Shown piece by piece: positions 16,078-32,089 of a stretch of 64,000 bases of DNA (positions are counted from its first letter, which is position 1; each line of letters opens with the position of its first letter). The notes below the pieces were generated by a model. It made no database searches, was not told where the DNA came from, and was given only the letters and a program-made list of their open reading frames with translations. This stretch comes from Acidimicrobiales bacterium (GTDB lineage: Bacteria > Actinomycetota > Acidimicrobiia > Acidimicrobiales > JAHEJN01), in assembly GCA_024638845.1 (NCBI GenBank), contig JAHEJN010000002.1:838-64837 (forward strand), read 5' to 3'. A program made the translations under genes and the position numbers.

Positions 16078-17582
16078 CCCGCCGCCGCATCCGCATCCTC
16101 GTCGTCATGGTTGTCGTTGCGATGCTCGGCGTCTCGGCGGTCAACGAGCGGCCCGCCGTCGCGCAGCTCGACGTCGACGAGCTGGCCCAGACCGAAGCCG
16201 AGATCCTCGCTCGTCAGGCTGAGCTCGATGCCGAGATCGCCGTCGCCCGCCAGGGCGTCGCCGAAGCCGAGTCGGCCCTGGTCCGGGCCCAGGCCGACCG
16301 GATACTGCTCCGACGCGACCTGGCCGACGCTCACCACCGCGACGACCGCGCGGCGGCAGCCCTGCGCTCACTGGCGGTGCAACGCTACGTGCTCGGCGAC
16401 CCGCGGATCGACGACTTCGTGAACGAGATCCTCCAAGAGCGGGCGACGGTCGAGCCGGCCATCGAGCGAGCCCTGTACGCCCAGGTGCTCGAAGAGGCCA
16501 TCGACTCGGCCGACGGCACCGACGCCGTGCTCGACGATCTTCGCGACCGGCTCGACGCCCGCCTCGCCGAGATCGACGAGAGAACCGCGGAGCTACCCGT
16601 GCTCCGGGGCGCCGTCACCGTGCTCGAGGCCGCCAAGAGCGCAACCGATGTCGAGCTCACCGCCATTCGCGACGAGCTCGACTGGGAACGATCGCTGCTT
16701 CGGAGGGCGAGACTGACCGGCCGCGACGACGGCACCGACAACAGCCGCCCCGTGTTGGCCGTGAAGATCGACAACGTCACCCAGGCTCGACCCCAGACCG
16801 GCATCAACCAGGCCGACGTCGTGTTCGAGGAGCTGGTGGAAGGTGACCTCACCCGTCTGGTCGGGCTGTTCCATTCCACCGGCTCGGATCCGGTGGGGCC
16901 GATCCGATCGGTGCGTACCAGCGACGTGCACATCCTGGCGAACCTCAACCGACCGTTGCTGGGGAACTCGGGCGGCAACCCGGGTGTGATGGAGGCCCTG
17001 CGGGCCTCTCCCGTCATCGACGTCGGAGCCCTGAGCCCGATCGCGGCCCGCTATTTCCGCTCGCCGGACAAGCCGGCGCCGAACAACCTCTTCTCGACGA
17101 CCACCGACCTGTGGGCGGCCGGCCAGGGATCCGAGGCCGGTGCCGCTCCCCCGCTGTTCTCGTTCCGCCGCCCGGATCGACCGTGGGGTGGCGACGCCCA
17201 GCCGACCAGCGGCGTCGACATCGACTACGGCGCCAACTTCGTCAGCTACCGATGGGATGCGACATCGCAACAGTTCCTGCGGTCCCAGGGCGGTTCCCCT
17301 CACGTCGACTCGGCCGGTGCCCAGGTGGCCCCCACCAACGTGATCGTGCAGATCACCGGATACCGACCGACCGTGTTCGCGCAGTTCTCCCCCGAGGCGC
17401 AGGTCGAGGGCGAGGGTGAGGTCTTCGTATTCGCCGGCGGCGAGGTCCGAACCGGTACCTGGCGACGCAACGGCCCCGAGGCGCCGACGCGCTACCTGGA
17501 CACCGCCGGCAACGAGATCGAGCTGTTGCCGGGCTCCACGTGGATCGCCCTGGCCCCACCCGGCTCGGTCACGGTTCGCTGA
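16074..17582 (+). CDS. DUF3048 domain protein with an N-terminal coiled coil
   Basis: GTG at 16074 overlaps the upstream TGA (GTGA). A TM/signal segment is followed by about 200 aa of coiled coil. The DUF3048-like core then reads PVLAVKIDNVTQARPQTGINQADVVFEELVEG..TRL..LFHS. Confidence 0.75.
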   Translation: MTRRRIRILVVMVVVAMLGVSAVNERPAVAQLDVDELAQTEAEILARQAELDAEIAVARQGVAEAESALVRAQADRILLRRDLADAHHRDDRAAAALRSLAVQRYVLGDPRIDDFVNEILQERATVEPAIERALYAQVLEEAIDSADGTDAVLDDLRDRLDARLAEIDERTAELPVLRGAVTVLEAAKSATDVELTAIRDELDWERSLLRRARLTGRDDGTDNSRPVLAVKIDNVTQARPQTGINQADVVFEELVEGDLTRLVGLFHSTGSDPVGPIRSVRTSDVHILANLNRPLLGNSGGNPGVMEALRASPVIDVGALSPIAARYFRSPDKPAPNNLFSTTTDLWAAGQGSEAGAAPPLFSFRRPDRPWGGDAQPTSGVDIDYGANFVSYRWDATSQQFLRSQGGSPHVDSAGAQVAPTNVIVQITGYRPTVFAQFSPEAQVEGEGEVFVFAGGEVRTGTWRRNGPEAPTRYLDTAGNEIELLPGSTWIALAPPGSVTVR

Positions 17583-17604
17583 GGGCGCAACTAGGTTGGG
17601 GCGC

Positions 17605-18669
17605 GTGAATGCACCCGAATCACGGCTGACGCAGTACAGCCACGGAGCCGGTTGAGCCTGCAAGCTCGGTCCCGGTGACCTGGCGCAGGTTCTGCGCCAC
17701 GACGACAACACGACCCGACCCGCCGACCTCGTCGTCGGGTTCGAGACCGGCGACGACGCTGCCGTGTGGCGCCGTCCCGACGGACGCGCCCTGGTGTCGA
17801 CCGCCGACTTCTTCACCCCCATCGTCGACGACGCCCGCACCTGGGGTCGTATCGCCGCCGCCAACGCGGCGAGCGATGTGTACGCCATGGGAGCCACGCC
17901 GCTGTTCGCGTTGAACCTCGTGGCCTGGCCCCGCGATCTCCTCCCGCTCGAGCTGCTCGCCGAGGTGCTCGACGGCGGCGCCTCGATGGCCGCCGAGGGC
18001 GGCTGGACCATCGCGGGCGGTCACACCGTCGACGGTCCCGAGCCGATGTACGGGCAGGCCGTGACGGGCGAGGTCGACCTCGATCACCTGATGACCAACG
18101 CCGGTGTGCGAACCGGTCAGGTGCTCGTGCTCACCAAGCCTCTGGGAACGGGCCTGGTCGCCACGGCGATCAAGCGGCTCGATCCCGCCGAGACCGCGCC
18201 GGGCGGCCGCTTGGCTGATCTCACGGCCGAGGCAGTGGCGGAGATGACCCGCCTCAACGACGTGGCCGCGCGGGTCGCCGGGTCGGTCGGCGCAACCGGA
18301 GCCACCGACGTCACCGGATTCGGTCTGCTGGGGCACCTCCAGAAGATGGCCCTCGCCAGTGATGTCGGCGCCGTGGTGCGTGCCCGGGACGTGCCGCTCC
18401 TGCATGGCGTCGGCGAGCTGCTCGCCGAGGGATTCGTGCCCGGGGGCACGACCCGCAACGTCGATCATTTCCGCCCGCACGTCACCGGTGATCGTTCCGA
18501 GCGGACCCTCACCCTGTTGGCCGACGCCCAGACGTCGGGAGGACTGCTCTTCGGCTGCTCGGCCGATCGCGTCGACGATGCGGTGGCCGAGCTCATCGAC
18601 GCCGGCCACCGAGCGGCTGCCATCGGCGAGCTCGTCGACGAGCCCCCGGGAAGCATTCGCGTCGAGTGA
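17605..18669 (+). CDS. selD: Selenide, water dikinase (selenophosphate synthetase) with UGA-encoded selenocysteine at 17653-17655
   Basis: Track ORFs 17416..17655 and 17764..18669 are in the same frame. Reading through the TGA gives RLTQYSHGAG-U-ACKLGPGDL, matching the SelD catalytic loop (E. coli RLTQYSHGAGCGCK). Downstream motifs: STADFFTPIVDD, GRIAAANAASDVYAMGA, TDVTGFGLLGH. The start at GTG 17605 is tentative. Confidence 0.9.
17656..17700 (+). promoter_or_regulatory. Candidate bacterial SECIS element
   Basis: Two alternative folds lie directly 3' of the UGA. One pairs 17656-17661 with 17685-17690, enclosing GGUC-CCGGU-GACC (17668-17680). The other is an 8-bp stem, 17681-17688 with 17692-17699, with a GUU/GGUUC loop. 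Confidence 0.5.
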
Positions 18670-19766
18670 ACCGTCTCGTCGCTATTGCCCTGCCCGCAGG
18701 CACTGCGTTCGTCGAGGCCTTGCAGCGGGCCTGGGACGACGACGATGCTGTTGCGCCCATCGACCTGCGTCTTCCCCCGTCGGCCCGGACCCGACTCCTC
18801 GAGGTGCTGCGCCCGTCGGTGGTGGTCGAACCCGGGGCCATCCACGAACGCCCCGACGGCCGGCCCGTCGAGCCCGGCGATGCGCTCGTGATGACCACGA
18901 GCGGCACCACCGGTGACCCGAAGGGCGTCGTGCTCACCCACGATGCGATCGTGGCCTCGGCGCTCGCGACGTCGGCGCGGCTCGGCGTCGACCCTCTGGC
19001 TGATTCGTGGCTCGCGTGCATGCCCCTTGCCCACATCGGAGGTCTCTCGGTGGTTTGTCGAGCGCTCGTCACCGGCACGCCCTTCACCGTGCAGCCGTCG
19101 TTCGATCCGGCCGCGGCCGAGCTCGCCGCCCGCGAAGGAGCCACCCTCGTGTCGATGGTGCCCACCATGTTGGCGCGCACCGACGTGTCGTCGTTTCGGC
19201 AGGTGGTGCTGGGCGGTGCTTCACTGCCGCCGGTGCGTCCCCCGAACACGGTGGCCTCCTACGGCATGACCGAGACCGGGAGCGGAATGGTCTACGAGGA
19301 CGAGCCGCTCGACGGCGTCGAGCTCCGGGTGGTCGACGGCGAGATCCAGGTCCGAGGTCCGATCCTGTTGCGGTGCTATCGCGACGGCACCGACCCGAAG
19401 GATGCCGAGGGCTGGTTCGCCACCGGCGACGGCGGCTCGCTCGAATCGGGCCACCTGGAGGTGCACGGTCGCATCGGCGACATGATCATCAGCGGCGGCG
19501 AGAACGTGTGGCCGGCACCGGTGGAGGCGCTTCTGTCAGTGCATCCCGGCATTGCCGAGGTTGCCATCGTGGGCCGACCCGACCCCGAATGGGGACAACG
19601 AGTCACCGCGGTCGTCGTCCCGCGTGGTCGACCCGATCTGAAGCTCCGGGAGCTGCGAGACCTGGTGCGGGCCGAGCTTCCGGCGTACTGCGCACCTCAC
19701 CGCATCGAGTACGTCACCGAGCTCACCCGTACCCCGATCGGCAAGATCCGTCGAGAGGCGCTGTGA
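18666..19766 (+). CDS. menE: o-Succinylbenzoate-CoA ligase (AMP-binding family)
   Basis: TSGTTGDPKGVVLTH AMP-binding motif, a short ~366-aa MenE-type length, and men gene context. Its GTG start overlaps the selD stop (GTGA). Confidence 0.8.
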   Translation: MNRLVAIALPAGTAFVEALQRAWDDDDAVAPIDLRLPPSARTRLLEVLRPSVVVEPGAIHERPDGRPVEPGDALVMTTSGTTGDPKGVVLTHDAIVASALATSARLGVDPLADSWLACMPLAHIGGLSVVCRALVTGTPFTVQPSFDPAAAELAAREGATLVSMVPTMLARTDVSSFRQVVLGGASLPPVRPPNTVASYGMTETGSGMVYEDEPLDGVELRVVDGEIQVRGPILLRCYRDGTDPKDAEGWFATGDGGSLESGHLEVHGRIGDMIISGGENVWPAPVEALLSVHPGIAEVAIVGRPDPEWGQRVTAVVVPRGRPDLKLRELRDLVRAELPAYCAPHRIEYVTELTRTPIGKIRREAL

Positions 19767-20821
19767 GTCATCGGCCGAGCCGCGACGTCCGCCTCATCTC
19801 GCTGGCGCAGCCCGATGCCCTCGGCGCGGCCCACGACACCACCATCGGCACGCAACGAGAGCTGGTGATCGTCGAGCTGATCGATCCCGAGACCGGGACA
19901 TCGGGGTGGGGTGAGTGCTCGGCCCTCAACGAGCCCGGCTACACCTCCGAGTGGGCCCGTGGCGCCTACGACGTGTTGACCGCAGGAGCACCCGTCGACC
20001 CGGCCGATCATCCCCAGGCGGCGGCCGCACTCGAGATGGCCCGGATCGACCTCGACCTTCGTCGGCGCTCGCAATCGCTGCTCGAGCTGTTGGCCATCGA
20101 TGCGGCACCCGTCGTGGCCGGTGCGACGATCGGTCTCGGCCGACCCGACGCGGTCACCGCCCGGGCCCTCGATCTCGTCACCGCGGGCTACCGGCGACTG
20201 AAGCTCAAGATCGCACCCGACCACGATCTCGCGATCGTTGCCGACGTCGCACGAGCCCATCCCGGCGTCGAGATCCACGTCGACGCCAACGGCTCCTTTC
20301 CACCCGCGGCCGTCGATCACCTCGCGGCGATCGACGGCGACGTGGCCGTGTTCGAACAGCCCTTCGCGATCGACGACCTCGACTCGAGCCGCACGCTCCG
20401 TGAACGAACCGAAGCCAAGGTGATGGCCGACGAGGGCGCCCGACCTGGCCATCGTCTCGACCGCCTCCTGGCGGCACGGGCCGTCGACGGCATCGCCGTG
20501 AAGCCGGGGTGCGTGGGCGGCATTCGCGCCGCGGCGTCCACCATCGAACGGTGTGGCGAAGCAGGTCTCGACGTCTCCATCGGCGGCATGCTCGAGAGCG
20601 GGCTCGGTCGCCACGTGCTGGCGGCGTTGGCGGCCCACAAGGCCGTCACGGTCGTCGGTGACGTCTCGCCGGCCGCACTGTGGCTGCGCGACGACCCGTG
20701 GCCCGATCTGGGGCTCGTCGACGGTCGGGTCTCGCCTCATGCGGGCACGGGTGTGGCGCCGGCACCCGATCTCGCCGTACTCGAACGATGCACCGTCACG
20801 AGACGGCGGTTGTCCGCCTGA
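19763..20821 (+). CDS. menC: o-Succinylbenzoate synthase (enolase superfamily)
   Basis: This is the in-frame tail of ORF 19007..20821. GTG at 19763 overlaps the menE stop. Motifs: RLKLKI, HVDANGSF, FEQP, MADEG, plus men context. Confidence 0.8.
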   Translation: MSHRPSRDVRLISLAQPDALGAAHDTTIGTQRELVIVELIDPETGTSGWGECSALNEPGYTSEWARGAYDVLTAGAPVDPADHPQAAAALEMARIDLDLRRRSQSLLELLAIDAAPVVAGATIGLGRPDAVTARALDLVTAGYRRLKLKIAPDHDLAIVADVARAHPGVEIHVDANGSFPPAAVDHLAAIDGDVAVFEQPFAIDDLDSSRTLRERTEAKVMADEGARPGHRLDRLLAARAVDGIAVKPGCVGGIRAAASTIERCGEAGLDVSIGGMLESGLGRHVLAALAAHKAVTVVGDVSPAALWLRDDPWPDLGLVDGRVSPHAGTGVAPAPDLAVLERCTVTRRRLSA

Positions 20822-21551
20822 ACTCGGAGACGAGGTCGGCCACCGCATCGGGTGCCTCGAGGTGGGCGGCATGGCCGGCGCCGGCCACCACCGCGACGCT
20901 TGCGTGCGGCATCGAACGGGCCATTTGGACCGCAACCGCGCGGAACTCCTGATCGGACTCGCCGACGACCAGCTTGGTGGGCGTCGTGATGTCGATCAGC
21001 CGACCCCACAGCGGCTCCTGTGCACCCGTGCCGCACCGACGCAGGCTCGAGGCCAGGCCGTCTGGTCGGTTCAGGAGACGAGCAGACCGGTGCTGTTGCT
21101 CGTCGCTCAACCCCGCGAACATCGGCATGGCGAGCCATCGGTCGACGAAGGCCGGTAACCCGTCGGCTTCCAGTCGACGGGCCAGTACGGCGTCGGAGCG
21201 GAACCGTTCGGCCCGCTGCGCCGGATCTTCGATTCCCGGGGTGGCACCGATCAGGACCATCGACTTCACCGTCTCGGGATGGTCGAGCGCGGCGTGGAGC
21301 AGTATCCGGCCCCCCATCGAGTAGCCGAGGTAGTGGGCGGGCCCACCAGTCTCCACGACCAGCCGGGCGGCCTCGACCAGATCGGCATCGTCGCTCGCCG
21401 ACTCGCCATGGCCGGGTGCATCGACGAGCACGAGCTCGTGGTCGTTCGCCAAGCGGTCCGCGATCGGCCCCCAGCACCGACGATTCTGGGTGAAACCATG
21501 CACCAGAACCAGCCGCTCACCGCGGCCCCGACACTCGTGGGCCAGGCTCAC
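20796..21551 (-). CDS. menH: Alpha/beta hydrolase, probable SHCHC synthase
   Basis: LVLVHGF, GHGES, and the nucleophile elbow YLGYSMGG. It sits in men context and overlaps menC convergently by 26 nt. Confidence 0.7.
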   Translation of the reverse strand: MSLAHECRGRGERLVLVHGFTQNRRCWGPIADRLANDHELVLVDAPGHGESASDDADLVEAARLVVETGGPAHYLGYSMGGRILLHAALDHPETVKSMVLIGATPGIEDPAQRAERFRSDAVLARRLEADGLPAFVDRWLAMPMFAGLSDEQQHRSARLLNRPDGLASSLRRCGTGAQEPLWGRLIDITTPTKLVVGESDQEFRAVAVQMARSMPHASVAVVAGAGHAAHLEAPDAVADLVSEFRRTTAVS

Positions 21552-21982
21552 GAGTCGCCGGTACCCGCCGCCACGGCCTTCTCGAGCAGGTGGGCCATGA
21601 CGGCCAGTTCCCGGGTGGTCAGAGGCGAGATGATGGGATGGGACCGCATGAGACGCTCGTGGATCTCGGCCGCGACGCGCTCGCCCTTGTCGGTGCGCAC
21701 GAGCTGCTTGACGCGGCGATCGTCGGGGTCGGCTCGCCGCTCGATGAGGGCGCGTTCCTCGAGCTGGTCGGCCAGACCGGTGATGTACGAAGCGTCGTAG
21801 CCGAGTCGCTCGGCCAGAGCGCCCATCGGAAGCGGCGAGTCGAGCTCGCGAAGCGCATGGGCCATCGGTAGGCTCATGTCGAACGGGTCGAGCTCGGCGC
21901 GAAACGTGGTTGTCATGCGGGCCCCGAGCACGCGCAGCGCCGTCGAGATCCGATCGAGGTGCTCTGCCCGGCTGGCGTCCAT
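21548..21982 (-). CDS. MarR family transcriptional regulator
   Basis: Winged-helix region LGALAERLGYDASYITGLADQLEERALIERRADPDDRRVK. The track start (TTG at 22027) is replaced by ATG at 21982. Its stop overlaps the menH start (ATGA). Confidence 0.8.
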   Translation of the reverse strand: MDASRAEHLDRISTALRVLGARMTTTFRAELDPFDMSLPMAHALRELDSPLPMGALAERLGYDASYITGLADQLEERALIERRADPDDRRVKQLVRTDKGERVAAEIHERLMRSHPIISPLTTRELAVMAHLLEKAVAAGTGDS

Positions 21983-22022
21983 GTCCTCCAGCCTAGTTGT
22001 CACCGGGCAGGTTCTTGCTAAA

Positions 22023-22035
22023 GTCAATACTTGAC
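22023..22035. promoter_or_regulatory. Candidate MarR operator palindrome
   Basis: GTCAA-TAC-TTGAC is a perfect inverted repeat in the AT-richer gap between divergent marR (21982) and the ABC ATPase gene (22063). Confidence 0.35.
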
Positions 22036-22062
22036 CCTTTAAACCTTTCTGAGGATCCGCTG

Positions 22063-23010
22063 ATGACTGCCCCTGCAGTACGTGCCGAGAACGTCGTCAA
22101 GCACTTCGGCGACGTGAAGGCCCTCGATGGCGTGTCGCTCACCTTCGAACCCGGAATGATCTACGGCCTGCTCGGGCCCAATGGCGCCGGCAAGACGACA
22201 CTGATCCGCGTGCTCACCACACTGCTGCGACCCGACTCGGGATCGGCCGAGGTGGCCGGAGTCGACGTGCTGGCGAATCCCACCGGCGCCCGGCGCCGGC
22301 TCGGTCTCGCCGGCCAGTCTGCAGCAGTCGACGAGTTCCTCACCGGCTACGAGAACCTCGAGATGGTCGGACGTCTCTACGGCCTCGGCCGCGCCGAGGC
22401 GAAGCGACGGGCCAACGACGTGCTCGAACGCTTGACGCTGAGCGACGCATCGGCTCGCCAGGTCAAGACGTACTCGGGAGGCATGCGCCGCCGTCTCGAC
22501 CTCGGCGCATCGATGGTCGGGCGACCCGACGTGCTGTTCCTCGACGAACCCACCACCGGGATCGATCCGGCCAGCCGCATAGACATCTGGGGCCTCATCA
22601 CCGATCTCGTGGCCAGCGGAACCACGATTCTCATGACCACGCAGTACCTGGAGGAGGTCGATCAGCTGGCCACCCGAATCGGCGTCATCGACCATGGCGT
22701 CATGATCGCCGAGGGCACCTCCGATGACCTCAAGAATCAGATCGGCGGTGCGATCATCGAGCTCATGGTGCGAGCGGGCAATCGCGAGCGGGTGATGGAG
22801 ACATTGCGATCCTCCACGAGCCAGGAACCGACCTACGACCCGGTTCGCGACCTGATCACCTTGCCGGCGCCCGGCGGAACCGCCGACCTGTTCTGTGTGG
22901 TGCGCGCCCTCGACGCCATCGACATCACCCCACTGGCGATCGATGTCCACAAGCCGACCCTCGACGACGCCTTCTTGGCCCTCACCGCCGACCAGGAGGT
23001 TCCGGCGTGA
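22063..23010 (+). CDS. ABC transporter ATP-binding protein (DrrA/ABC-2 type)
   Basis: Walker A GPNGAGKTT, signature YSGGMRRRL, Walker B LFLDEPTTGID. The Met at 22063 lies within ORF 21997..23010. Confidence 0.9.
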   Translation: MTAPAVRAENVVKHFGDVKALDGVSLTFEPGMIYGLLGPNGAGKTTLIRVLTTLLRPDSGSAEVAGVDVLANPTGARRRLGLAGQSAAVDEFLTGYENLEMVGRLYGLGRAEAKRRANDVLERLTLSDASARQVKTYSGGMRRRLDLGASMVGRPDVLFLDEPTTGIDPASRIDIWGLITDLVASGTTILMTTQYLEEVDQLATRIGVIDHGVMIAEGTSDDLKNQIGGAIIELMVRAGNRERVMETLRSSTSQEPTYDPVRDLITLPAPGGTADLFCVVRALDAIDITPLAIDVHKPTLDDAFLALTADQEVPA

Positions 23011-23864
23011 CCACCGCAACCCTTCCCGAGGCTGCCATTTCGGGCGACGCCCACCGGATCTCGCTGATCGCCGGACTGCGCGACACCAGCGTGATCGTGC
23101 GCCGCAACATGGTGCGCAACGTGCGACTGCCGCAACTCCTCATCTTCGCCACGATCCAGCCGGTGCTGTTCCTGCTGCTGTTCAACTACGTCTTCGGTGG
23201 ATCGATCGGCCTTTCGCTCGGGGGCGCGTACGGTGGCAAGTACATCAACTATCTCCTCCCTGGCATGCTCGTGCAGACGGCGATGTTCTCCTCGATGCAG
23301 ACCGCCATCGGCCTGACCGAGGATCTCGGCAACGGGGTGATCGACCGCTTTCGTTCGCTCCCGATCGCCCGCTCGGCGGTACTGGCGGGGCGCACGTCGG
23401 CCGACATGGTGCGCACGCTGTTCGTCGTGTCCTTGCTCACGATCGTCGGGTACATCGTGGGATTCCGCACCGCCGACGGCCTCCCGAAACTGGCGATCGG
23501 CCTGATCTTCTGTGTGCTCTTCGGCTTTGCGCTGTCGTGGGTCATGGCCTTCGTGGGTCTGGCCGTGAAGACACCGGAGGCGGCGAACTCGGCGGCGTTC
23601 CTGCCCCTGTTCCCGCTCATGTTCGCCAGCTCGATCTTCGTTCCCGTCGACACCCTGCCCAGCTGGATGCAGGGATTCGCCGAGAATCAGCCGGTCACCG
23701 TGCTGGCCGACACGATGCGCGGCTACGTGCTCGGCCAGGAGTTCCTCTCGACCTCCCCGCGGTCGTTGACCACCTTGTCGCTGTTCTCGATGTTCTGGAT
23801 CGTCGTGATCCTCGTGATCGCCGTGCCCCTGGCCGTGCGCAAGTACCGCCGCACGGTCGCGTAG
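23007..23864 (+). CDS. ABC-2 type transporter permease
   Basis: Six predicted hydrophobic segments. Its start overlaps the ATPase stop. Confidence 0.8.
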   Translation: MTTATLPEAAISGDAHRISLIAGLRDTSVIVRRNMVRNVRLPQLLIFATIQPVLFLLLFNYVFGGSIGLSLGGAYGGKYINYLLPGMLVQTAMFSSMQTAIGLTEDLGNGVIDRFRSLPIARSAVLAGRTSADMVRTLFVVSLLTIVGYIVGFRTADGLPKLAIGLIFCVLFGFALSWVMAFVGLAVKTPEAANSAAFLPLFPLMFASSIFVPVDTLPSWMQGFAENQPVTVLADTMRGYVLGQEFLSTSPRSLTTLSLFSMFWIVVILVIAVPLAVRKYRRTVA

Positions 23865-23865
23865 A

Positions 23866-24540
23866 TCAGTCCGAGGCGACAGCGGCCTTCAGGAATCCCA
23901 TCACCGGCGCGGCCACCGCCCACTGGTCGAGGATGAACTGATCGAGCTCGGGATCGAGCAGCAGTTCCGGGTCCTCGAAGTCGGCCCAGAACACCCACTG
24001 CTTGTTGAGCACCAGCGGCTCGATCTCGGCCAGCTCCTTCAACTCGGTCGGCACCCGCTTGTGGGCATCACCGGTGAGCTCACCGTACGTGGCAACGAAA
24101 TCCTTTGCGGTGGTGAGCTTCCGAAGCTCGGGCGAATGCTCGCCGACGTAGCGGCGAACGCTATCTCGCAGCTCGGTGTCGGGCATGTACAAGCCGCCGG
24201 CAACGGCCACGCCGTTGATGCCGACCCGACAGGTGTAGCCGGGGTAGCTGCCGTCGTGCTTCTCGCGGCGACCGACGGTGATGCCGAGCTGGGTCTTGTA
24301 CGGCGACTTGTCGTTGCTGAAGCGCACGTCGCGGTTGATCCGATAGATCGCTTTCGTCGGGTCCGTCCGGTACTCGGGGTGGTCGGCCTGCAAGCCCGCG
24401 ACCAGCGCAACCGCCAGTGCGCGGTACGGCTCCTTCAGATTCTCCTCGTAGCTCCTTCGGTTGGCGTCGAAGTACGCCTTGGAGTTGTCGGCGGCCAGCC
24501 CTCGCCAGAAGTCGAGCGTCTCCTGCGTGAAGAATCCCAT
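23866..24540 (-). CDS. DUF2461 (TIGR02453-like) family protein
   Basis: This is the C-terminal 224 aa of the spurious 727-aa ORF. It reads MGFFTQETLDFWRGLAADNSKAYFDANRRSYEENLKEPY...IYRINRDVRFSNDKSPYKT. Confidence 0.75.
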   Translation of the reverse strand: MGFFTQETLDFWRGLAADNSKAYFDANRRSYEENLKEPYRALAVALVAGLQADHPEYRTDPTKAIYRINRDVRFSNDKSPYKTQLGITVGRREKHDGSYPGYTCRVGINGVAVAGGLYMPDTELRDSVRRYVGEHSPELRKLTTAKDFVATYGELTGDAHKRVPTELKELAEIEPLVLNKQWVFWADFEDPELLLDPELDQFILDQWAVAAPVMGFLKAAVASD

Positions 24541-24606
24541 CGGTCGATCCTGTCGCGGCCAGAGCGACGACGCCACAAGGACGACTCGGCATCTACGCTC
24601 GCCGGG

Positions 24607-26274
24607 ATGACCGTCACCGCCGCCGCCACCTTCTGCGCCACCCTCGTCGACGAGTTCGCCCGGCGGGGTGTCACGCAGGCCTTCGTTGCACCGGGATCGC
24701 GTTCCACGCCGTTGTTGCTCGCCCTCGATACCGACGCACGCGTCGCCGTGCACGTCTTCCACGACGAGCGGTCGGCGTCGTTCGCCGCGCTCGGGTACGC
24801 CAACACCACCGGCGTGCCCGGCATCGTCCTGTGCACCTCGGGAACCGCAACCGCCCACCTCTACGCGGCCATCATCGAGGCCGACCAGTCCGGTGTGCCG
24901 ATGATCGTGTGCACCGCCGACCGGCCGCCCGAGCTGTGGGCTCGCGGCGCACCGCAGACCATCGATCAGACCAGGATGTACGGCAAGGCCCCACGCCTGT
25001 TCGTGCAGCCAGGCCCGGCCGACGACGACCACGCCCCGACGTGGAGGCCCCTCGCCGCCGACATCGCCGACCATGCTGCAGGCTTTCGGGGCGCCCGACC
25101 CGGGCCGGTCCACGCCAACCTGTCGTTTCGTGATCCGCTGGTCGGTGAGCCGGGCCCGCTCCCAGACCCGCTCGAACCGAGCCCGCCAACCCCTCGACCG
25201 TCGGTCGCCGACTCCGAGGCAGCCGCGATCGCCGAGCTGTGCCGCCAACGCAGCGGGGTGATCGTAGCCGGCCGCGGCACCACCGGTCGCGACGACCTGC
25301 ACCTTCTGGCCGATCGGCTCGGATGGCCGATCGTCGCCGATCACCAGTCGGGCGCCCGCACCGACGACACGGTCGCCCACGCCGACGCCCTGCTGCGTCA
25401 CGCGCCCTTCGCCGCGAGCCGACGACCCGAGGTGATCCTCCGCTTCGGCGAGGCACTCTCGTCGAAGGCGCTGAGCCAGTGGATGGCTGCGTGTGCCGCC
25501 GACGGCTGCGACGTGGTGTCGTTGCACCAGCCCGGACGCCTGATCGATCCCGAGACCATCGCCGCGCTCGTTGCGCCCGAGGACGGCGCGGCGGCCGCCA
25601 TCCTCGAACACGTCGGACGATGCAGCCCCGTCGACGAGTCCGGAACCTGGCTCGACGCCGACCACCGAGCGCGGTCGATCATCACCGAGGCCATCGCGGC
25701 CGCTCCCGACTCCGAGCTCGCCGTGGCCATCCGTGCCCTTCACGCCGCCGGCCCCGACGGCATCGTCGTCTCCGCATCGTCGATGCCGGTGCGCTACCTC
25801 GAGTGGTTCGACTCCCACCCACCCGACGGCACGCGGGTACTCTCCAATCGCGGGGCCAACGGCATCGACGGTGTGATCGCGACGTCGATCGGCGCAGCCC
25901 TCACCGGTGCGCCGACGGTGTGTCTCGTCGGCGATGTGGCCTTCCTGCACGACGCGAGCTCGCTCACGGCACTGACCCGTCGTCGCATCGATCTCACCGT
26001 CGTGGTGATCCACAACGACGGCGGCGGCATCTTCTCGTTCCTGCCCCAAGCCGACCTGCTAGAACCCGATCGCTTCGACCGGCTGTTCGGCACTCCTCAC
26101 GGCACCGACCTGGTCGCTCTCGCCGCCGCCCACGGCATCGAAGCAACCGATGACACCGCGGACCTCTCACCACAGGGCGTGCGGGTGATCGTGGCCCGGA
26201 CCGCCGACCGACCGGACCATGTCGAGCGGGTTCGAGCGATCAACGACGCCGTGGCCTCTACGCTCGACCCATGA
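24607..26274 (+). CDS. menD: SEPHCHC synthase (ThDP-dependent)
   Basis: The Met at 24607 gives MTVTAAATFCATLVDEFARRGVTQAFVAPGSRSTPL...CTSGTATAHL...CTADRPPEL, with a ThDP motif GDVAFLHD...NDGGGIF. Confidence 0.9.
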   Translation: MTVTAAATFCATLVDEFARRGVTQAFVAPGSRSTPLLLALDTDARVAVHVFHDERSASFAALGYANTTGVPGIVLCTSGTATAHLYAAIIEADQSGVPMIVCTADRPPELWARGAPQTIDQTRMYGKAPRLFVQPGPADDDHAPTWRPLAADIADHAAGFRGARPGPVHANLSFRDPLVGEPGPLPDPLEPSPPTPRPSVADSEAAAIAELCRQRSGVIVAGRGTTGRDDLHLLADRLGWPIVADHQSGARTDDTVAHADALLRHAPFAASRRPEVILRFGEALSSKALSQWMAACAADGCDVVSLHQPGRLIDPETIAALVAPEDGAAAAILEHVGRCSPVDESGTWLDADHRARSIITEAIAAAPDSELAVAIRALHAAGPDGIVVSASSMPVRYLEWFDSHPPDGTRVLSNRGANGIDGVIATSIGAALTGAPTVCLVGDVAFLHDASSLTALTRRRIDLTVVVIHNDGGGIFSFLPQADLLEPDRFDRLFGTPHGTDLVALAAAHGIEATDDTADLSPQGVRVIVARTADRPDHVERVRAINDAVASTLDP

Positions 26275-27185
26275 CCGAACCGGTTTCCGAGCTCTTCGAT
26301 GCCGATGCCTGGACCGACGTGGACGGCTTCGACTTCACCGACATCACCTATCACCGGGCCCGGCACGTGCCGGCCGTTCGCATCGCCTTCGACCGACCCG
26401 AGGTGCGCAACGCCTTTCGGCCCCACACTGTCGACGAGCTCTACACCGCTCTCGATCACGCCCGTCAGTCGTCCGACGTCGGCTGCGTGCTGCTCACCGG
26501 CAACGGCCCGTCGGCCAAGGACGGCGGCTGGGCGTTCTGCTCGGGCGGCGACCAACGCATACGCGGCACCGACGGGTACCGCTACACGACCGACGACGGC
26601 GAGACCGCCGACGCCATCGATCCGGGCCGGAGCGGGCGTCTGCACATCCTCGAGTGCCAGCGTCTCATCCGCTTCATGCCCAAGCCGGTTGTCGCCGTGG
26701 TACCGGGCTGGGCTGCGGGAGGCGGCCACAGCCTCCACGTGGTGTGCGATCTCACGATCGCCAGCCGCGAACACGCCCGGTTCAAGCAGACCGACACCGA
26801 CGTCGCCAGTGTCGATGCCGGCTTCGGCTCGGCCTACCTCGCCCGTCAGGTGGGCCAGAAGGTCGCACGAGAGATCTTCTTCCTGGGGCTCACCTACACC
26901 GCAGACGAGGCCATGGCTCAGGGAGCGGTCAACAAGGTCGTGACCCACGCCGAGCTCGAAGCCACCGCGCTCGAGTGGGCGGCCGAGATCTGTAAGAAGA
27001 GCCCGACGGCCCAGCGCATGGCGAAGTTTGCGTTCAACCTCATCGACGACGGTCTGGTCGGTCAGCAGGTGTTCGCCGGCGAGACCACCCGTCTCATCTA
27101 CGGCACCGACGAGGCCAAGGAGGGCCGCGACGCCTTCCTCGACAAGCGAGACCCCGACTGGTCGGACTTCCCTTACTACTACTGA
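26271..27185 (+). CDS. menB: 1,4-Dihydroxy-2-naphthoyl-CoA synthase
   Basis: Crotonase fold with FCSGGDQRIRG and GWAAGGGHSLHVVCDLTIAS. Its start overlaps the menD stop (ATGA). Confidence 0.95.
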   Translation: MTEPVSELFDADAWTDVDGFDFTDITYHRARHVPAVRIAFDRPEVRNAFRPHTVDELYTALDHARQSSDVGCVLLTGNGPSAKDGGWAFCSGGDQRIRGTDGYRYTTDDGETADAIDPGRSGRLHILECQRLIRFMPKPVVAVVPGWAAGGGHSLHVVCDLTIASREHARFKQTDTDVASVDAGFGSAYLARQVGQKVAREIFFLGLTYTADEAMAQGAVNKVVTHAELEATALEWAAEICKKSPTAQRMAKFAFNLIDDGLVGQQVFAGETTRLIYGTDEAKEGRDAFLDKRDPDWSDFPYYY

Positions 27186-27240
27186 CGCGTGGGCTCACGA
27201 CCAGGGCGGCAGGCCGGGAAGTGTGCCGGTGGGCCTCCGG

Positions 27241-27777
27241 TCAGGCGAAGGGCCGAATGGGGACGGTTCGGTCCCATCCGATGGTCTGCTTCCAGAAATT
27301 GGTGAAGACGGCTTCCATCAGCTCGCTGGTCTCGATGAGCTCGATGTACCCGGGAAGGGCGCCGTTCGTGTCGAGGTACCCGACCTTGCCACCCGTGGGA
27401 ACTCCTGCCTCGAAGGCGAGCTCGTAACCCATGGCCAGGTACTTCGCCTTGTCGGCGGGATAGTCGTCGGTGGCCATGCCGAAGTGGTGGAAGCCGTGTC
27501 CCTTCACCGCAATGTGCTCGTTGTACACCGAGGGGAGGTCGTCGTTGGGTTGGATGAGCTCGACGTTCATGTGCCCGGCGAAGCTCATGGCGAGCTTCGC
27601 GCTGCCCTGGGCCGGCTGACCACGGTAGACGGGGTCGTCGCCGGTGAAGCGGTCGAGGAGAAACCACGGGCCGACGCCGAGGTTGTCGATCCAGCTCTGG
27701 ATGGCCGCCTCGATGTCGGCTACCACGTAGGCCATCTGCATGATGCCGTCGTCGGGCTGGCCGAAGTCGAGATCCAT
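27241..27777 (-). CDS. VOC (glyoxalase/bleomycin resistance/dioxygenase) family protein
   Basis: IMQMAYVVADIEAAIQSW...GVGPWF plus a second half with HHFGMATDD, typical of tandem VOC modules. Confidence 0.7.
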   Translation of the reverse strand: MDLDFGQPDDGIMQMAYVVADIEAAIQSWIDNLGVGPWFLLDRFTGDDPVYRGQPAQGSAKLAMSFAGHMNVELIQPNDDLPSVYNEHIAVKGHGFHHFGMATDDYPADKAKYLAMGYELAFEAGVPTGGKVGYLDTNGALPGYIELIETSELMEAVFTNFWKQTIGWDRTVPIRPFA

Positions 27778-27847
27778 GACGCACTCCCCTGGTCGAGATC
27801 CGCGCCGATACTAGGTGCGCCGGGTGCGGCCCACCTAACGTGCCCCC

Positions 27848-28339
27848 ATGGTTCGCTACGCCGACAGACCGACCGCTACCGAGACCATCGACATCGGCGC
27901 CCCGCCGGCCACCGTGTGGACGCTGGTCAGCGACCCCGAGGTGCCGGCGCAGTTCTCCACCGAGCTCCAGTCGGCCTCCTGGAGCGACACCGGGCCCCAC
28001 GAGGGCGCCGTCATCGTGGGCACCAACTTCCACGAAGCTCGCGGGACTTGGACCACCACGTCGGTGGTCACTGTCTGCGACGTCGAGCACGAGTTCACCT
28101 GGACCGTCGGCGACGTCGACAACCCCACGGCCCAGTGGAGCTTCCGCCTCGAGGCCATCGACGCCGGGACCCGGCTCGGGTTCCGGGCGGTGATGGGACC
28201 CGGGCCCTCCGGCGTGTCGAGCTTCATCGAGAAACGGCCCGACCTGGAGGAGGAGATCGTCGCCAACCGACTGGCCATGTGGAGCGAGAACATGCGCCGC
28301 ACGCTGGCCGGCGTCAAACAGTTGGCCGAAGCCGTCTGA
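27848..28339 (+). CDS. SRPBCC (START/polyketide cyclase-like) family protein
   Basis: TIDIGAPPATVWTLVSDPEVPAQFS is a typical SRPBCC N-terminus. Confidence 0.7.
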   Translation: MVRYADRPTATETIDIGAPPATVWTLVSDPEVPAQFSTELQSASWSDTGPHEGAVIVGTNFHEARGTWTTTSVVTVCDVEHEFTWTVGDVDNPTAQWSFRLEAIDAGTRLGFRAVMGPGPSGVSSFIEKRPDLEEEIVANRLAMWSENMRRTLAGVKQLAEAV

Positions 28340-28347
28340 GCCGCCGC

Positions 28348-28854
28348 TCAGAGCACCTTGTTGCCGTACATCTCGCCGAGCCGATCGTTGATCAGCTCGA
28401 GCCGTTCGCCGTCGGGACCCGTGAAGTACAGCGATGACCCGCCCACCTCGTGGACCTCGACGCCGGCTTCGGCCAGGCGGCCGCGAAGCTCGGTCCAGAC
28501 GGCGGGGGGCACCGAGATGGCGAGATGGTGATGGCCACCGAGCACCTCCTGATAGGGCCCGAGGCCGAGATCGGGGAAGTCGAAGAACGCCAAGGCGTTC
28601 CCGTTGCCGATGTCGAAGAAGAAGTGTGTCGAGCCGGGATAGTCGCGGTTCTCGAACAGCTCGGTCAGCGGGAAACCGAGGAGCCCCTGATAGAAGCGAA
28701 TCGTGGTCTCGACGTCGCTGCTCAGCAGGGCTTGATGGTGCACTCCCCGACCGTTGCTGGCCGGTCGTTGGTCATCGGACTGGAGGTACTGCGCGCGCAG
28801 TTGATCCCATTCGGCCTGTCGTTCGGGGGTGGCTCGTGAATCGGTCGTTGCCAT
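28348..28854 (-). CDS. VOC family protein
   Basis: VHHQALLSSDVETTIRFYQGLLGFPL...HFFFDIGNG...HHLAISV. The Met at 28854 is preferred over the track start at 28890. Confidence 0.7.
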   Translation of the reverse strand: MATTDSRATPERQAEWDQLRAQYLQSDDQRPASNGRGVHHQALLSSDVETTIRFYQGLLGFPLTELFENRDYPGSTHFFFDIGNGNALAFFDFPDLGLGPYQEVLGGHHHLAISVPPAVWTELRGRLAEAGVEVHEVGGSSLYFTGPDGERLELINDRLGEMYGNKVL

Positions 28855-28893
28855 GCCCCACTCTGCCACGGTCACCCGCGCCGGTACCACGCG

Positions 28894-30105
28894 TCAATCG
28901 GTGAGCACCGAGAGCATGGCCTGGAGCTTGGCCTCGGTCTCGGCCAGCTCGGCGACCGGGTCACTGTCGGCCACCACCCCAACGCCCGCCCAGAGCCGAG
29001 CGCAGTTCCCCTCGATCTGAGCCGACCGGATACCGACCGCGAAGGCCCCGTTGCCGCCCGCATCGACCCAGCCGACGGGGCCGGCGTAGCGGCCGCGATC
29101 GCCGCCCTCGAGCTCGCCGATGAGCTCGAGCGCGGTCGCCTGCGGGTCGCCGCCGACCGCTGGCGTCGGGTGGAGCGCGGCGACGAGCTCGAGAATCGAG
29201 GCGGCGGGCCTCGACAGGACTCCCTCCACCCGGGTGCCGAGGTGATGCACGTTGGCCAGCGAGACGATCGTGGGCTCGGGCTCGGCATCGACATAGGAGC
29301 AGAACGGCAACAACGTGTCGAGCAGCCAGTCGATGGTGATGCGATGCTCCCACTGGTCCTTGGTCGATGCCAACAGATCAGCGGCGACGACGGCATCGGC
29401 GGCGGGATCGGTACGTCGGGCTGCGGTGCCGGCCAGCGGGTGGGCTCGAACGACCGTGTCGGAGCGGCCGACCAGCAGCTCCGGCGACGCGCCGATGAAT
29501 CCGTCGACGGCGAAGACCGCGGTGGACGGAAACCTTTCGACGAGCCCGGCGAGCACGGCCGGAGTGGCGATCGGCTCGGTGGCGGTGACCCGCAGTTCTC
29601 GGGCCAACACGACCTTCCGCAGCGCGCCCGCCGCGATGCGTTCGACCGCACGCGCGACCGCGGTATCACGCCACTCGGCCGGTGACCGCATCGACTCGAC
29701 GCGGGGCGCGCGAGGACGAACACCGACGGGTGAGTCGAGGATCTCCTCGCACCTCGCACGAGCATCATCGGTGTCGCCGTCGAGCGCGGTGAGCCAGCCC
29801 GACCCGTCGGCATCCCGACCGACGATCACCTCGGGAACCACGAGCTCGCCCGGCGCGCCCCGATCGAACGGGAACGCACCGAAGCCCACCACTCCGCGTC
29901 CTGGAGTCCCCGCCGGCCCGGAGCCGGCGAGGTCGGCCAGCGCCTGTTGGGCCGCGGGCGCACCTCCGGGCCGCTCGACGACGACACGACCGGCAGTGCC
30001 GATGCCGGCGAGACGCACCTGCTCGCCGGCCCAGAGCGTGCCGCTGCGGATGCCGATGGCCGCGGGGTCGAGCGGTGGATCGAGGCCGATGGTGCGCGGG
30101 TTCAC
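28894..30105 (-). CDS. menF: Isochorismate synthase
   Basis: Chorismate-binding C-terminus LHPTPAVGG...GRYAGPVGW...FAVGIRSA...WAGVGVVADSDP..E..E...K. The start is taken at GTG 30105, and the upstream extension of ORF 28894..30465 is rejected. Confidence 0.8.
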   Translation of the reverse strand: MNPRTIGLDPPLDPAAIGIRSGTLWAGEQVRLAGIGTAGRVVVERPGGAPAAQQALADLAGSGPAGTPGRGVVGFGAFPFDRGAPGELVVPEVIVGRDADGSGWLTALDGDTDDARARCEEILDSPVGVRPRAPRVESMRSPAEWRDTAVARAVERIAAGALRKVVLARELRVTATEPIATPAVLAGLVERFPSTAVFAVDGFIGASPELLVGRSDTVVRAHPLAGTAARRTDPAADAVVAADLLASTKDQWEHRITIDWLLDTLLPFCSYVDAEPEPTIVSLANVHHLGTRVEGVLSRPAASILELVAALHPTPAVGGDPQATALELIGELEGGDRGRYAGPVGWVDAGGNGAFAVGIRSAQIEGNCARLWAGVGVVADSDPVAELAETEAKLQAMLSVLTD

Positions 30106-30138
30106 GCACCCGAGGCTACGGCCGCCACACTGGAGGTC

Positions 30139-30570
30139 GTGGATCGCCGCGCCAGCACCGACACCTCGGCCACCCCCGACCATCTGCACGCCGTCGTGGC
30201 CGACCTCGGCCGCTATCCCGAGTGGCTCGACGAGGTCACCCGGGCCGAACCGGCGACCGGACACGGCGATGCATGGTCGGTCACCCTCCGGGCCCGGGTG
30301 GGTCCCTTCGCCCGATCGAAGCGGCTGCGTATGGTCCGCACCCGCAACGACGTGCCTCGACACGTGCGTTTCGAACGAGCAGAAGTCGACGGTCGCAACC
30401 ACTCGGCCTGGACGCTCGACGCCACGGTCGAACCGACCGCAGGCGGCAGCCGGGTCACCATGCATCTGGCCTACGACGGCAACCTCTGGTCCGGGGTCCT
30501 CGATCGGGTGCTCGGTTCGATGATCGACGACGCCATCCCCGATCTCAAACGCCTCGTCGAGACCGACTGA
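30139..30570 (+). CDS. SRPBCC family protein
   Basis: This is the tail of ORF 29947..30570. It reads PDHLHAVVADLGRYPEWLDEVT...VGPFARSKRLRM. The start (GTG 30139) is tentative. Confidence 0.6.
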   Translation: MDRRASTDTSATPDHLHAVVADLGRYPEWLDEVTRAEPATGHGDAWSVTLRARVGPFARSKRLRMVRTRNDVPRHVRFERAEVDGRNHSAWTLDATVEPTAGGSRVTMHLAYDGNLWSGVLDRVLGSMIDDAIPDLKRLVETD

Positions 30571-30579
30571 CCGGCTCGC

Positions 30580-31068
30580 TCAGAGGCGCTTCTCGAAGAA
30601 ATGCAGGGCGTAGGGGTTGTCGTTGTACCGCTCGATCTCGACGTAGCCGGCGCGCTCGTACATCGCTATGGCCTCGGTGAGCACGCTGTTGGTGTCGAGG
30701 CGAACGGTGCCATAGCCCAGGTCCGACGCATGGCACTCGAGCTCCCGCAGCATGCGTCTTCCCAGACCGCGTCCCCGGTGACCAGGCGCAACCCACATGC
30801 GCTTGATCTCGGCGACCGCTGCGCTGAAGCGTTGGACTCCGCCGCAGGCAACCGGCCGCTTCTCGTGCCGGGCGATGACGAACACCCCGGCGGGGGCGTC
30901 GAACAGCGGCGCGTCGGAATCGAGGGCGTCACCGGGGTCGAAGCCGGCGTGGAACCGACGATCGAGCTCGTCGAAGTAGCTCTGCACCGATGCCACGGCC
31001 TCGGAACTGCGCGGGTCGACCACCGCGAAGGTGACATCGACGGGGACCCGGTCTGGTCGATCGGACAC
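30580..31068 (-). CDS. GNAT family N-acetyltransferase
   Basis: Acetyl-CoA binding motif VAPGHRGRGLGRRML, with AMYERAGY at the C-terminus. Confidence 0.85.
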   Translation of the reverse strand: MSDRPDRVPVDVTFAVVDPRSSEAVASVQSYFDELDRRFHAGFDPGDALDSDAPLFDAPAGVFVIARHEKRPVACGGVQRFSAAVAEIKRMWVAPGHRGRGLGRRMLRELECHASDLGYGTVRLDTNSVLTEAIAMYERAGYVEIERYNDNPYALHFFEKRL

Positions 31069-31074
31069 CGACGA

Positions 31075-32028
31075 TCAGGCCAGGGCCTCGGCGTAGCGAT
31101 CGTGGGCGCTTTCGCCGGCCTCGGTGACGGTCAGGATCTCGACACCGTCGGGGGTGACGACCATGGTGTGCTCGAACTGCGCCGATCGGCAGCCATCGGC
31201 GGTGACCGCGGTCCAGTCGTCGTCCCAGATCTCGCCGAGCTCCCAACGACCGAGATTCAGCATGGGCTCGATGGTGAAGCTCATGCCCTCCTCCATGACC
31301 AGATCGAAGCGGCGCACGTAGTAGTGCGGGATCTGCAAGGAGGTGTGGAACTCGGTGCCGACCCCGTGCCCGATGAAGTCGCGCACGACGCTCAGCCCGT
31401 TTCTGGTGGCGTGGTTCTCGATGGCGCGGCCGATGGCGTTGAACGGCGCGCCGGGACGGACTTCGGCGATGGCCAGATCGAGAGCCCGTTTCGTCTCGAC
31501 CACGAGGTGTCGGCTCGCGTCGTCGACGTCGCCGACGAGGAAGGTGATGGAGGTGTCGCCGTGCACGCCACCGATGTAGGCGGTGACGTCGATGTTGACG
31601 ATGTCGCCGTCCTGCAGCTGGCGGCTGTCGGGGATGCCGTGACAGATCACCTCGTTCACCGAGGTGCAGACCGACTTGGGGTACCCCTTGTACCCGAGCG
31701 GGCTCGGGTAGGCGCCCCGGCTGATGTAGGCCTCGTGGGCGACGATGTCGAGCTTCTCGGTGCTCACACCCGGTGCCACCGCCGCGCCGACCTCGAGCAG
31801 GATCTCCGCCGCGACCGAACCGGCCGTGCGCATGCGCTCGATCTCGTCGGCGGTGCGGACCGGGGAGGATGCCGACAGGCCCGGGTCGCCGCCGTTGGCC
31901 ACGTAGGGAGGACGCTCGATGCTGCCGGGAACCGCCCGCATCGGGGACACGAGCCCGGGCCGCACGGGCGGGTCCGAAGCCACGACGTCGAACAGCGGTT
32001 TCGGTTGTCGGCGTTTGCGCTTGGCCAT
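31075..32028 (-). CDS. map: Type I methionyl aminopeptidase with an N-terminal extension
   Basis: CHGIPD, DIVNIDVTA, GDTS, HGVGTEFH, EPM. There is a ~40-aa basic/Pro-rich N-terminal extension. Confidence 0.95.
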   Translation of the reverse strand: MAKRKRRQPKPLFDVVASDPPVRPGLVSPMRAVPGSIERPPYVANGGDPGLSASSPVRTADEIERMRTAGSVAAEILLEVGAAVAPGVSTEKLDIVAHEAYISRGAYPSPLGYKGYPKSVCTSVNEVICHGIPDSRQLQDGDIVNIDVTAYIGGVHGDTSITFLVGDVDDASRHLVVETKRALDLAIAEVRPGAPFNAIGRAIENHATRNGLSVVRDFIGHGVGTEFHTSLQIPHYYVRRFDLVMEEGMSFTIEPMLNLGRWELGEIWDDDWTAVTADGCRSAQFEHTMVVTPDGVEILTVTEAGESAHDRYAEALA

Positions 32029-32089
32029 GCGATCTCCCGGGTCCAGACCATCAGGTTAGCGGCGCACTCCGGAGCCTCACGCCTGGCCT

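Follow-up and report, generated by a model that had tools for sequence, protein, structure and literature searches.

We examined a 64,000-nucleotide stretch of DNA (the window) from an uncultured Acidimicrobiales bacterium (GenBank assembly GCA_024638845.1, contig JAHEJN010000002.1, positions 838 to 64,837 of the forward strand), which has a G+C content of 68% and carries a selD gene for a predicted selenophosphate synthetase (SelD). The coding sequence contains a single in-frame UGA, located exactly opposite the catalytic cysteine of Escherichia coli SelD. Sequence comparison indicates that this UGA is very probably recoded as selenocysteine (Sec). Two observations carry this reading. The homologous codon in relatives is either TGA or a cysteine codon, and an RNA hairpin just 3' of the UGA covaries in genes with UGA and gives no covariation signal in genes with cysteine. 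The coordinates of all features are collected in Table 1.

An in-frame UGA at the catalytic position of SelD

The selD frame runs from GTG 17605 to the TGA at 18667-18669 and is broken by one internal stop only, the TGA at 17653-17655. Translation of 17605-18669 gives VNAPESRLTQYSHGAG up to this codon and ACKLGPGDLAQVLRH... after it, with 337 further residues past the internal TGA. The initial annotation had described a gene split at this TGA into two pieces of the same frame, which proved accurate to the base: the open reading frame (ORF) list contains the pieces 17416..17655 and 17764..18669, both in the selD frame. We take GTG 17605 as the probable start codon. The relatives at loci L082 and L084 begin six codons ahead of the RLT motif, with GTG and ATG, respectively, and the selD of the window lies downstream of a DUF3048 gene, whose stop is the TGA at 17580-17582, and upstream of an AMP-ligase gene.

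The 354-residue protein, scored with a cysteine placed at the internal stop, matches both family models for SelD from end to end and above their cut-offs: TIGR00476 (selD) at 370.9 bits (cut-off 125; positions 1-309 of 311 covered) and NF002098 at 359.8 bits (cut-off 299; positions 3-344 of 347 covered). It has the two-domain architecture of AIR-synthase-like proteins (AIRS, PF00586, 86 bits; AIRS_C, PF02769, 66.8 bits) and matches solved SelD structures, namely that of E. coli (3u0o, E = 8e-75) and chain 2yye (E = 2e-54). In the column-for-column alignment with E. coli SelD, query residue 17, encoded by the TGA, stands opposite Cys17 and Lys20 is kept, so that HGAG-U-ACK faces HGAGCGCK. Judged by its scores, its domains and its Gly-rich loop with Cys/Sec and Lys, the gene is a selD. 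The earlier assignment of the gene to selD and of its UGA to the catalytic Cys/Sec position is thus borne out, as is the statement that a start at 17764 would remove the catalytic loop, whose codons all lie 5' of that position.

To compare the codon across the family, we collected 80 genomic loci encoding SelD relatives (individual loci are given as L numbers). The homologous codon was readable in 78 of them, which together with the window makes 79 sequences. TGA occupies the site in 40 sequences (39 loci and the window) and TGC or TGT in 39, while TAA and TAG never occur. The genes with TGA (UGA-type) come from Acidimicrobiia, other Actinomycetota, Gemmatimonadota, Marinimicrobia, Chloroflexota, Bacillota and others. 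All UGA-type relatives preserve, in frame, about 16 codons 5' of the TGA (...RLTxxSHGAG), and ACKLGP is conserved on the 3' side.

The TGA itself is genuine. An independent Logan assembly of this gene from the same organism (L081) has it as well, and it recurs in the relatives L082, L084 and L083 (88%, 72% and 69% protein identity, respectively). These repeated observations exclude a sequencing error. Reassignment of UGA throughout the genome was also considered and rejected: TGA is the stop of 46 of the 53 predicted genes in the window, and UGA is therefore an ordinary stop codon in this genome.

The second cysteine of the loop, equivalent to E. coli Cys19, is retained in the window (U-A-C-K). 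Twelve UGA-type SelD proteins (L008, L010, L019, L024, L025, L056, L061, L062, L074, L075, L077 and L083) have Ser, Gly or Ala in its place (U-A-S-K, U-A-G-K, U-A-A-K), and it is therefore not obligatory in the Sec forms.

Public databases do not represent the gene in full. That standard gene callers would truncate selD had been anticipated, and the public call for the window (P0001) is indeed a protein of 291 residues that begins with MSTADFF, at a start even later than 17764. Most of the closest relatives in the protein database are likewise fragments of 310-326 residues (mostly about 324), covering 88-92% of the query; the full-length SelD entries carry HGAGCACK. Such misannotation of the selenoprotein SelD is a recognised artefact (PMC13326102). 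The gene is better annotated as one selenoprotein of 354 residues than as the public product of 291 residues, from which the catalytic loop is missing; the database entries of most close relatives are in error in the same way.

Hairpins 3' of the UGA

Folding of the 48 nucleotides (nt) from the UGA onwards gives three small hairpins. The distal one, here called H2, is the best candidate for a bacterial Sec insertion sequence (bSECIS). Its stem (17681-17688 paired with 17692-17699) has 8 bp and a folding energy of -12.9 kcal/mol, with a z-score of -4.35, and none of 200 shuffled sequences folds equally well. The published bSECIS model calls for a loop of 3-9 nt, a stem of 4-16 bp, a G within the first two loop positions, a spacing of 16-37 nt between UGA and loop, and a minimum free energy of at most -7.5 kcal/mol (PMC13188914). 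With its GUU loop, 8-bp stem, 33-nt spacing and energy of -12.9 kcal/mol, H2 satisfies all of these constraints.

We assessed the conservation of H2 in an ungapped alignment of the 40 UGA-type sequences and in the same columns of the 39 genes with cysteine (Cys-type). In the UGA-type alignment, 79.4% of the H2 cells are paired, compared with 35-46% when the 3' partners are slid. In six of the eight pairs, both partners have changed in some sequences (28 cells); at columns 33/43, for example, G-C has become C-G or U-A. None of 500 shuffles attains the covariation score of 0.322, the value for shuffled alignments being 0.169. In the 39 Cys-type genes, by contrast, the H2 columns are 50% paired, which is not above the slid controls, and give no covariation signal. 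At least seven of the eight H2 pairs can form in 28 of the 40 UGA-type genes and in 1 of the 39 Cys-type genes.

We left the window out and built a covariance model from the remaining 39 UGA-type sequences; it matches 17653-17706 at 59 bits (E = 1.6e-18), and the next best match in the 64 kb reaches 11.9 bits. The scores of held-out UGA-type relatives lie at 57.7-59.4 bits, those of Cys-type sites at 7.7-52.3 bits. The Rfam search returned no family at gathering thresholds in the window and no SECIS match around the site even at E-values up to 10. This null result carries no weight, as Rfam covers bacterial SECIS elements poorly (bioRxiv 10.64898/2026.04.03.716425). The initial annotation had described H2 as SECIS-like, and its stability, its covariation in UGA-type genes and the lack of signal in Cys-type genes all agree with that description. 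Together, these results suggest that H2 is most likely the stem-loop bound by SelB, a choice over the proximal hairpin that we infer from the comparisons above.

The highest Cys-type score, 52.3 bits, belongs to a selD with a TGC codon from a Gemmatimonadota metagenome-assembled genome (MAG; L038:10031-10084). This gene retains a perfect proximal hairpin and six of the eight pairs of the distal hairpin. It looks like a SECIS remnant left after a recent conversion from Sec to Cys, as has been described for other families (PMC1794560).

The proximal hairpin, H1, is much weaker. In the window it has 4 bp and, taken alone, an energy of -3 kcal/mol and a z-score of -0.5. Across the alignments, the mean folding energy of the H1 region is -8.9 kcal/mol in UGA-type and -4.1 kcal/mol in Cys-type genes (p = 5e-8), with G+C contents of 63% and 57%, respectively. 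H1 has two registers, which go with the identity of the codon located eight positions past the UGA: GGUC...GACC accompanies Asp GAC, and (A)GCUCGG...CCGAGC(U) accompanies Glu GAG. Each class keeps its own pairs, with a mean of 4.16 of 5 in the GAC register and 6.71 of 7 in the GAG register. At this Asp/Glu codon (columns 25-27; 17677-17679 in the window), UGA-type genes use GAC in 25 cases, GAG in 14 and GAU never, compared with GAU in 14 of the 39 Cys-type genes, high-GC genomes among them. On the sequence evidence, we regard this codon choice as a signature of RNA structure. In the mixed alignment, neither register taken singly passes the shuffle test for covariation. We therefore consider the support for H1 to be moderate, coming from the comparison of Sec and Cys genes and from the codon-linked registers.

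An earlier fold had placed H1 inside a longer helix, with an outer stem pairing 17656-61 with 17685-90. Its inner GGUC-CCGGU-GACC hairpin recurs in relatives and stands, but the outer stem does not. Although this stem is part of the long minimum-energy helix that includes the UGA, it is paired in 72.5% of cells, the same as in shuffles (72.9%). The pair between columns 6 and 36 is broken in 27 of the 40 sequences, and no covariation was found. Since the outer stem also cannot coexist with H2, with which it competes, we rejected it as a conserved structure.

A model for UGA recoding and its alternatives

We propose the following model for the expression of selD. Translation would start at GTG 17605. 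At the UGA, a SelB-type factor carrying Sec-tRNA(Sec) would be tethered to a stem-loop located just 3' within the coding sequence, most likely the 8-bp hairpin H2, which presents G-U in its loop. SelB would then insert selenocysteine in place of termination. The predicted product is a selenophosphate synthetase of 354 residues with Sec17 in the Gly-rich N-terminal loop (HGAG-U-ACK). H1 would occupy the gap between the UGA and the SECIS hairpin.

The Sec machinery is encoded close to several UGA-type selD genes. A tRNA-Sec gene with anticodon TCA lies a few kb from selD in a Symbiobacterium MAG (L033:4149-4247), a Halanaerobiales MAG (L062:14259-14357) and Aliibacillus thermotolerans (L067:14600-14697). 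selA or selB adjoins the UGA-type selD at L033, L067 and L075, and the gene order at L067 is selA, selD, one further gene, selB and tRNA-Sec. In another order of Acidimicrobiia, all complete genomes are reported to have selA, selB and selC together with a Sec-type SelD (bioRxiv 10.64898/2026.04.03.716425).

Several observations weigh against this model. ARAGORN found no tRNA-Sec, and no tRNA at all, within the 64-kb window, and a Pfam scan of about 59 window ORFs revealed no SelA, SelB or selenouridine synthase. tblastn searches with SelA and SelB from L067 and L033 gave no match in the window or in the Acidimicrobiia loci, and no tRNA-Sec, selA or selB was found within 10 kb of selD in close relatives. 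As regards the RNA, a spacing of 33 nt between the UGA and the H2 loop is close to the maximum of the consensus range and exceeds that of E. coli fdhF by 14 nt. Since G37 and U38 of the loop also begin a conserved Val codon, the conserved loop sequence does not by itself speak for the RNA. It is nevertheless plausible that selA, selB and tRNA-Sec are encoded elsewhere in this genome, and the initial annotation had likewise expected a complete Sec-decoding system and probably further recoded genes. We found eight other TGAs with coding-like flanks in the window; all of them separate adjacent same-frame genes or lie in antisense frames, and none is a candidate for read-through.

The identity of the SECIS hairpin is the point at which an alternative deserves most attention. 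Sec could be inserted with SelB binding H1, and H2 could be an accessory or stabilising element. Counted from the UGA, the GGU in the H1 loop occupies positions 22-24, as G22-G23-U24 do in E. coli fdhF, and for Acetomicrobium SelD the BSepDB example record names the proximal hairpin as the canonical SECIS (PMC13326102). In addition, a perfect proximal hairpin with a G-first loop (GGUCC-GGN-GGACC) is present in 6 of the 12 UGA-type genes without H2, against 2 of the 28 with H2 (Fisher p = 0.005, uncorrected for relatedness), as if one hairpin replaced the other. In the window, however, H1 has the low stability described above, and covariation was not significant by the shuffle test. Moreover, in the relatives that carry H2 the register of H1 shifts and its loop is variable, in some cases without any G (AAAAU, CAAAC). 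We therefore regard H1 as an unlikely, though not negligible, candidate for the SelB-binding element, and prefer H2.

The remaining alternatives dispense with Sec altogether. If the TGA were a true stop, selD would be a pseudogene, or translation would begin further downstream, for example at 17764, and yield only a protein truncated at the N-terminus; this is how public gene callers annotate it, and it would agree with the Sec machinery not being seen in the window. Against this, every UGA-type relative, whatever its phylum, keeps the 16 upstream codons in frame, the site has TGA and never TAA or TAG, and only in UGA-type genes is the codon followed by a structured RNA that shows compensatory changes. 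A truncated protein would also lack the Gly-rich loop with Cys/Sec17 and Lys20 that is present in the family models and solved structures, while the rest of the gene is intact and covers the models in full length. We give this explanation very little credence. Read-through independent of Sec, in which a near-cognate tRNA inserts Trp, Cys or Arg, the hairpins act as stimulators and the Sec machinery has been lost, appears highly improbable. It would be compatible with a Sec machinery that is only presumed for this genome, and stem-loops promoting such read-through have been described for insect SPS1-UGA genes (PMC4561486). The hairpin, however, is of the bacterial SECIS type and is common to UGA-type selD genes that adjoin tRNA-Sec, selA or selB, and the position requires a Cys or Sec nucleophile. 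It also counts against this explanation that we know of no bacterial precedent. Finally, a sequencing or assembly error for TGC or TGT would need a single-base difference and has nothing specific in its favour; with the same TGA in L081, in three related assemblies and in 39 other genomes, it is effectively refuted. Selenocysteine insertion directed by H2 thus remains the reading that we favour.

Genomic context and comparison with known systems

The selD gene is embedded in a menaquinone-biosynthesis cluster (window 18666-30465; Table 1). Its stop codon overlaps the start of the menE-like gene (GTGA, 18666-18669), which suggests translational coupling. The gene order DUF3048-selD-menE-menC is retained in L082 and L084.

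Table 1 Features of the selD locus and of the adjoining menaquinone cluster, in window coordinates.
Feature	Position	Strand	Remarks
selD (selenide, water dikinase) coding sequence	17605..18669	+	354 sense codons including one UGA; stop 18667-18669
In-frame UGA, predicted Sec codon (residue 17)	17653..17655	+	opposite Cys17 of E. coli SelD; TGA/Cys-only site
N-terminal catalytic loop codons, H13-G-A-G-U17-A-C19-K20	17641..17664	+	from translation and alignment to E. coli HGAGCGCK
Possible weak ribosome-binding AGG	17593..17595	+	9 nt 5' of the GTG start; predicted from sequence
Hairpin H1, GGUC / CCGGU / GACC	17668..17680	+	weak, proximal; putative spacer or auxiliary element
Hairpin H2, UGGCGCAG / GUU / CUGCGCCA	17681..17699	+	best bacterial SECIS candidate; loop bases G17689, U17690
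menE-like AMP-ligase	18666-19766		
menC-like enolase-superfamily gene	about 19850-20818		
menD-like ThDP enzyme	within 24061-26271		
menB-like enoyl-CoA hydratase	26271-27182		
menF-like chorismate-binding enzyme	28897-30465	-	

Elsewhere in the window, 28348-32055 on the minus strand encodes a methionine aminopeptidase, a GNAT acetyltransferase, the menF-like enzyme and a glyoxalase-family protein in one frame, with a single TGA between each gene and the next. These four genes mimic read-through but simply adjoin one another, as shown by the separate start and separate Pfam family of each. The plus-strand gene at 36313-37482 encodes the N- and C-terminal FrhB/FdhB domains (coenzyme F420 hydrogenase/dehydrogenase beta-subunit family) and has no in-frame UGA. 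The minus-strand stretch 47751-49852 holds a predicted gene for an ArsA-family ATPase (48917-49852), followed and overlapped by a long ORF (47748-49355) that the composition-based gene list had missed. Here, too, lies the plus-strand ORF 47805-48974, which gave no Pfam match.

A recoded selD marks this uncultured actinobacterium as a likely user of selenocysteine, which bears on its trace-element needs. The finding adds nothing new in kind, because Sec-containing SelD has been known for decades. The earliest descriptions concerned Haemophilus influenzae and Methanococcus jannaschii (Guimaraes et al. 1996, cited in bioRxiv 10.64898/2026.04.03.716425), and surveys have followed (PMC1794560, PMC4561486, PMC13188914). 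SelD has been listed as one of the two most abundant bacterial selenoprotein families (PMC1794560) and as the second most widespread prokaryotic one (PMC13188914), and the bSECIS elements of Sec-type SelD genes have been recovered before (PMC4561486). The gene reported here shares with the known Sec-type genes its family, a UGA at the equivalent of E. coli Cys17, a stem-loop directly 3' within the coding sequence, Sec/Cys polymorphism among close relatives and truncation by annotation pipelines. Nothing essential differs. The copy in the window belongs to an uncultured actinobacterium of high G+C content; the named relatives closest to it are MAGs of Acidimicrobiia/Ilumatobacteraceae, and it lies in a menaquinone cluster and not beside selA or selB.

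Compared with the SECIS of E. coli fdhF, whose sequence we confirmed in 5,419 of 5,426 E. coli genomes, the element is likewise a stem-loop within the coding sequence 3' of the UGA. The H2 apex GCAGGUUCUGC resembles the fdhF apex GCAGGUCUGC but is one base longer, and it exposes G-U in its loop. The layouts differ. In the fdhF-type SECIS, the SelB-binding minihelix begins about 11 nt after the UGA, its loop (GGUC) spans +22 to +25 and its stem contains a bulged U. In H2 the loop lies at +37 to +39 (the loop G of fdhF being at +22/23), which places the apex 14 nt further from the UGA; the bulged U is absent, a separate hairpin of 13 nt fills the extra distance, and the UGA, unlike that of fdhF, lies outside any supported lower helix. 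H2 may thus function like the fdhF SECIS in a layout that is not of the fdhF type.

H2 also fits the bSECISearch consensus as summarised in PMC13188914, with a spacing near the top of the range and a second conserved hairpin preceding it. In other SelD lineages the proximal hairpin alone appears to be the SECIS, as in the BSepDB example (PMC13326102). The simplest reading suggests a SelD family with two layouts, in which the window belongs to the H2 class and H1 is a spacer. Going further, we tentatively put forward, as a possibility that we rate somewhat below even, a tandem-hairpin class of bacterial SECIS, in which a SelB-binding H2 with its loop 33 nt from the UGA is held in place by a conserved 13-nt spacer hairpin. 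Such a class would cover this lineage and about 70% of the sampled UGA-type selD genes, with the proximal-only layout elsewhere and the two solutions interchanging within one family. Only this tandem layout and its apparent exchange with the proximal-only SECIS may be new relative to the known systems, and two interchangeable SECIS layouts in SelD could help to improve predictors of bacterial SECIS elements.

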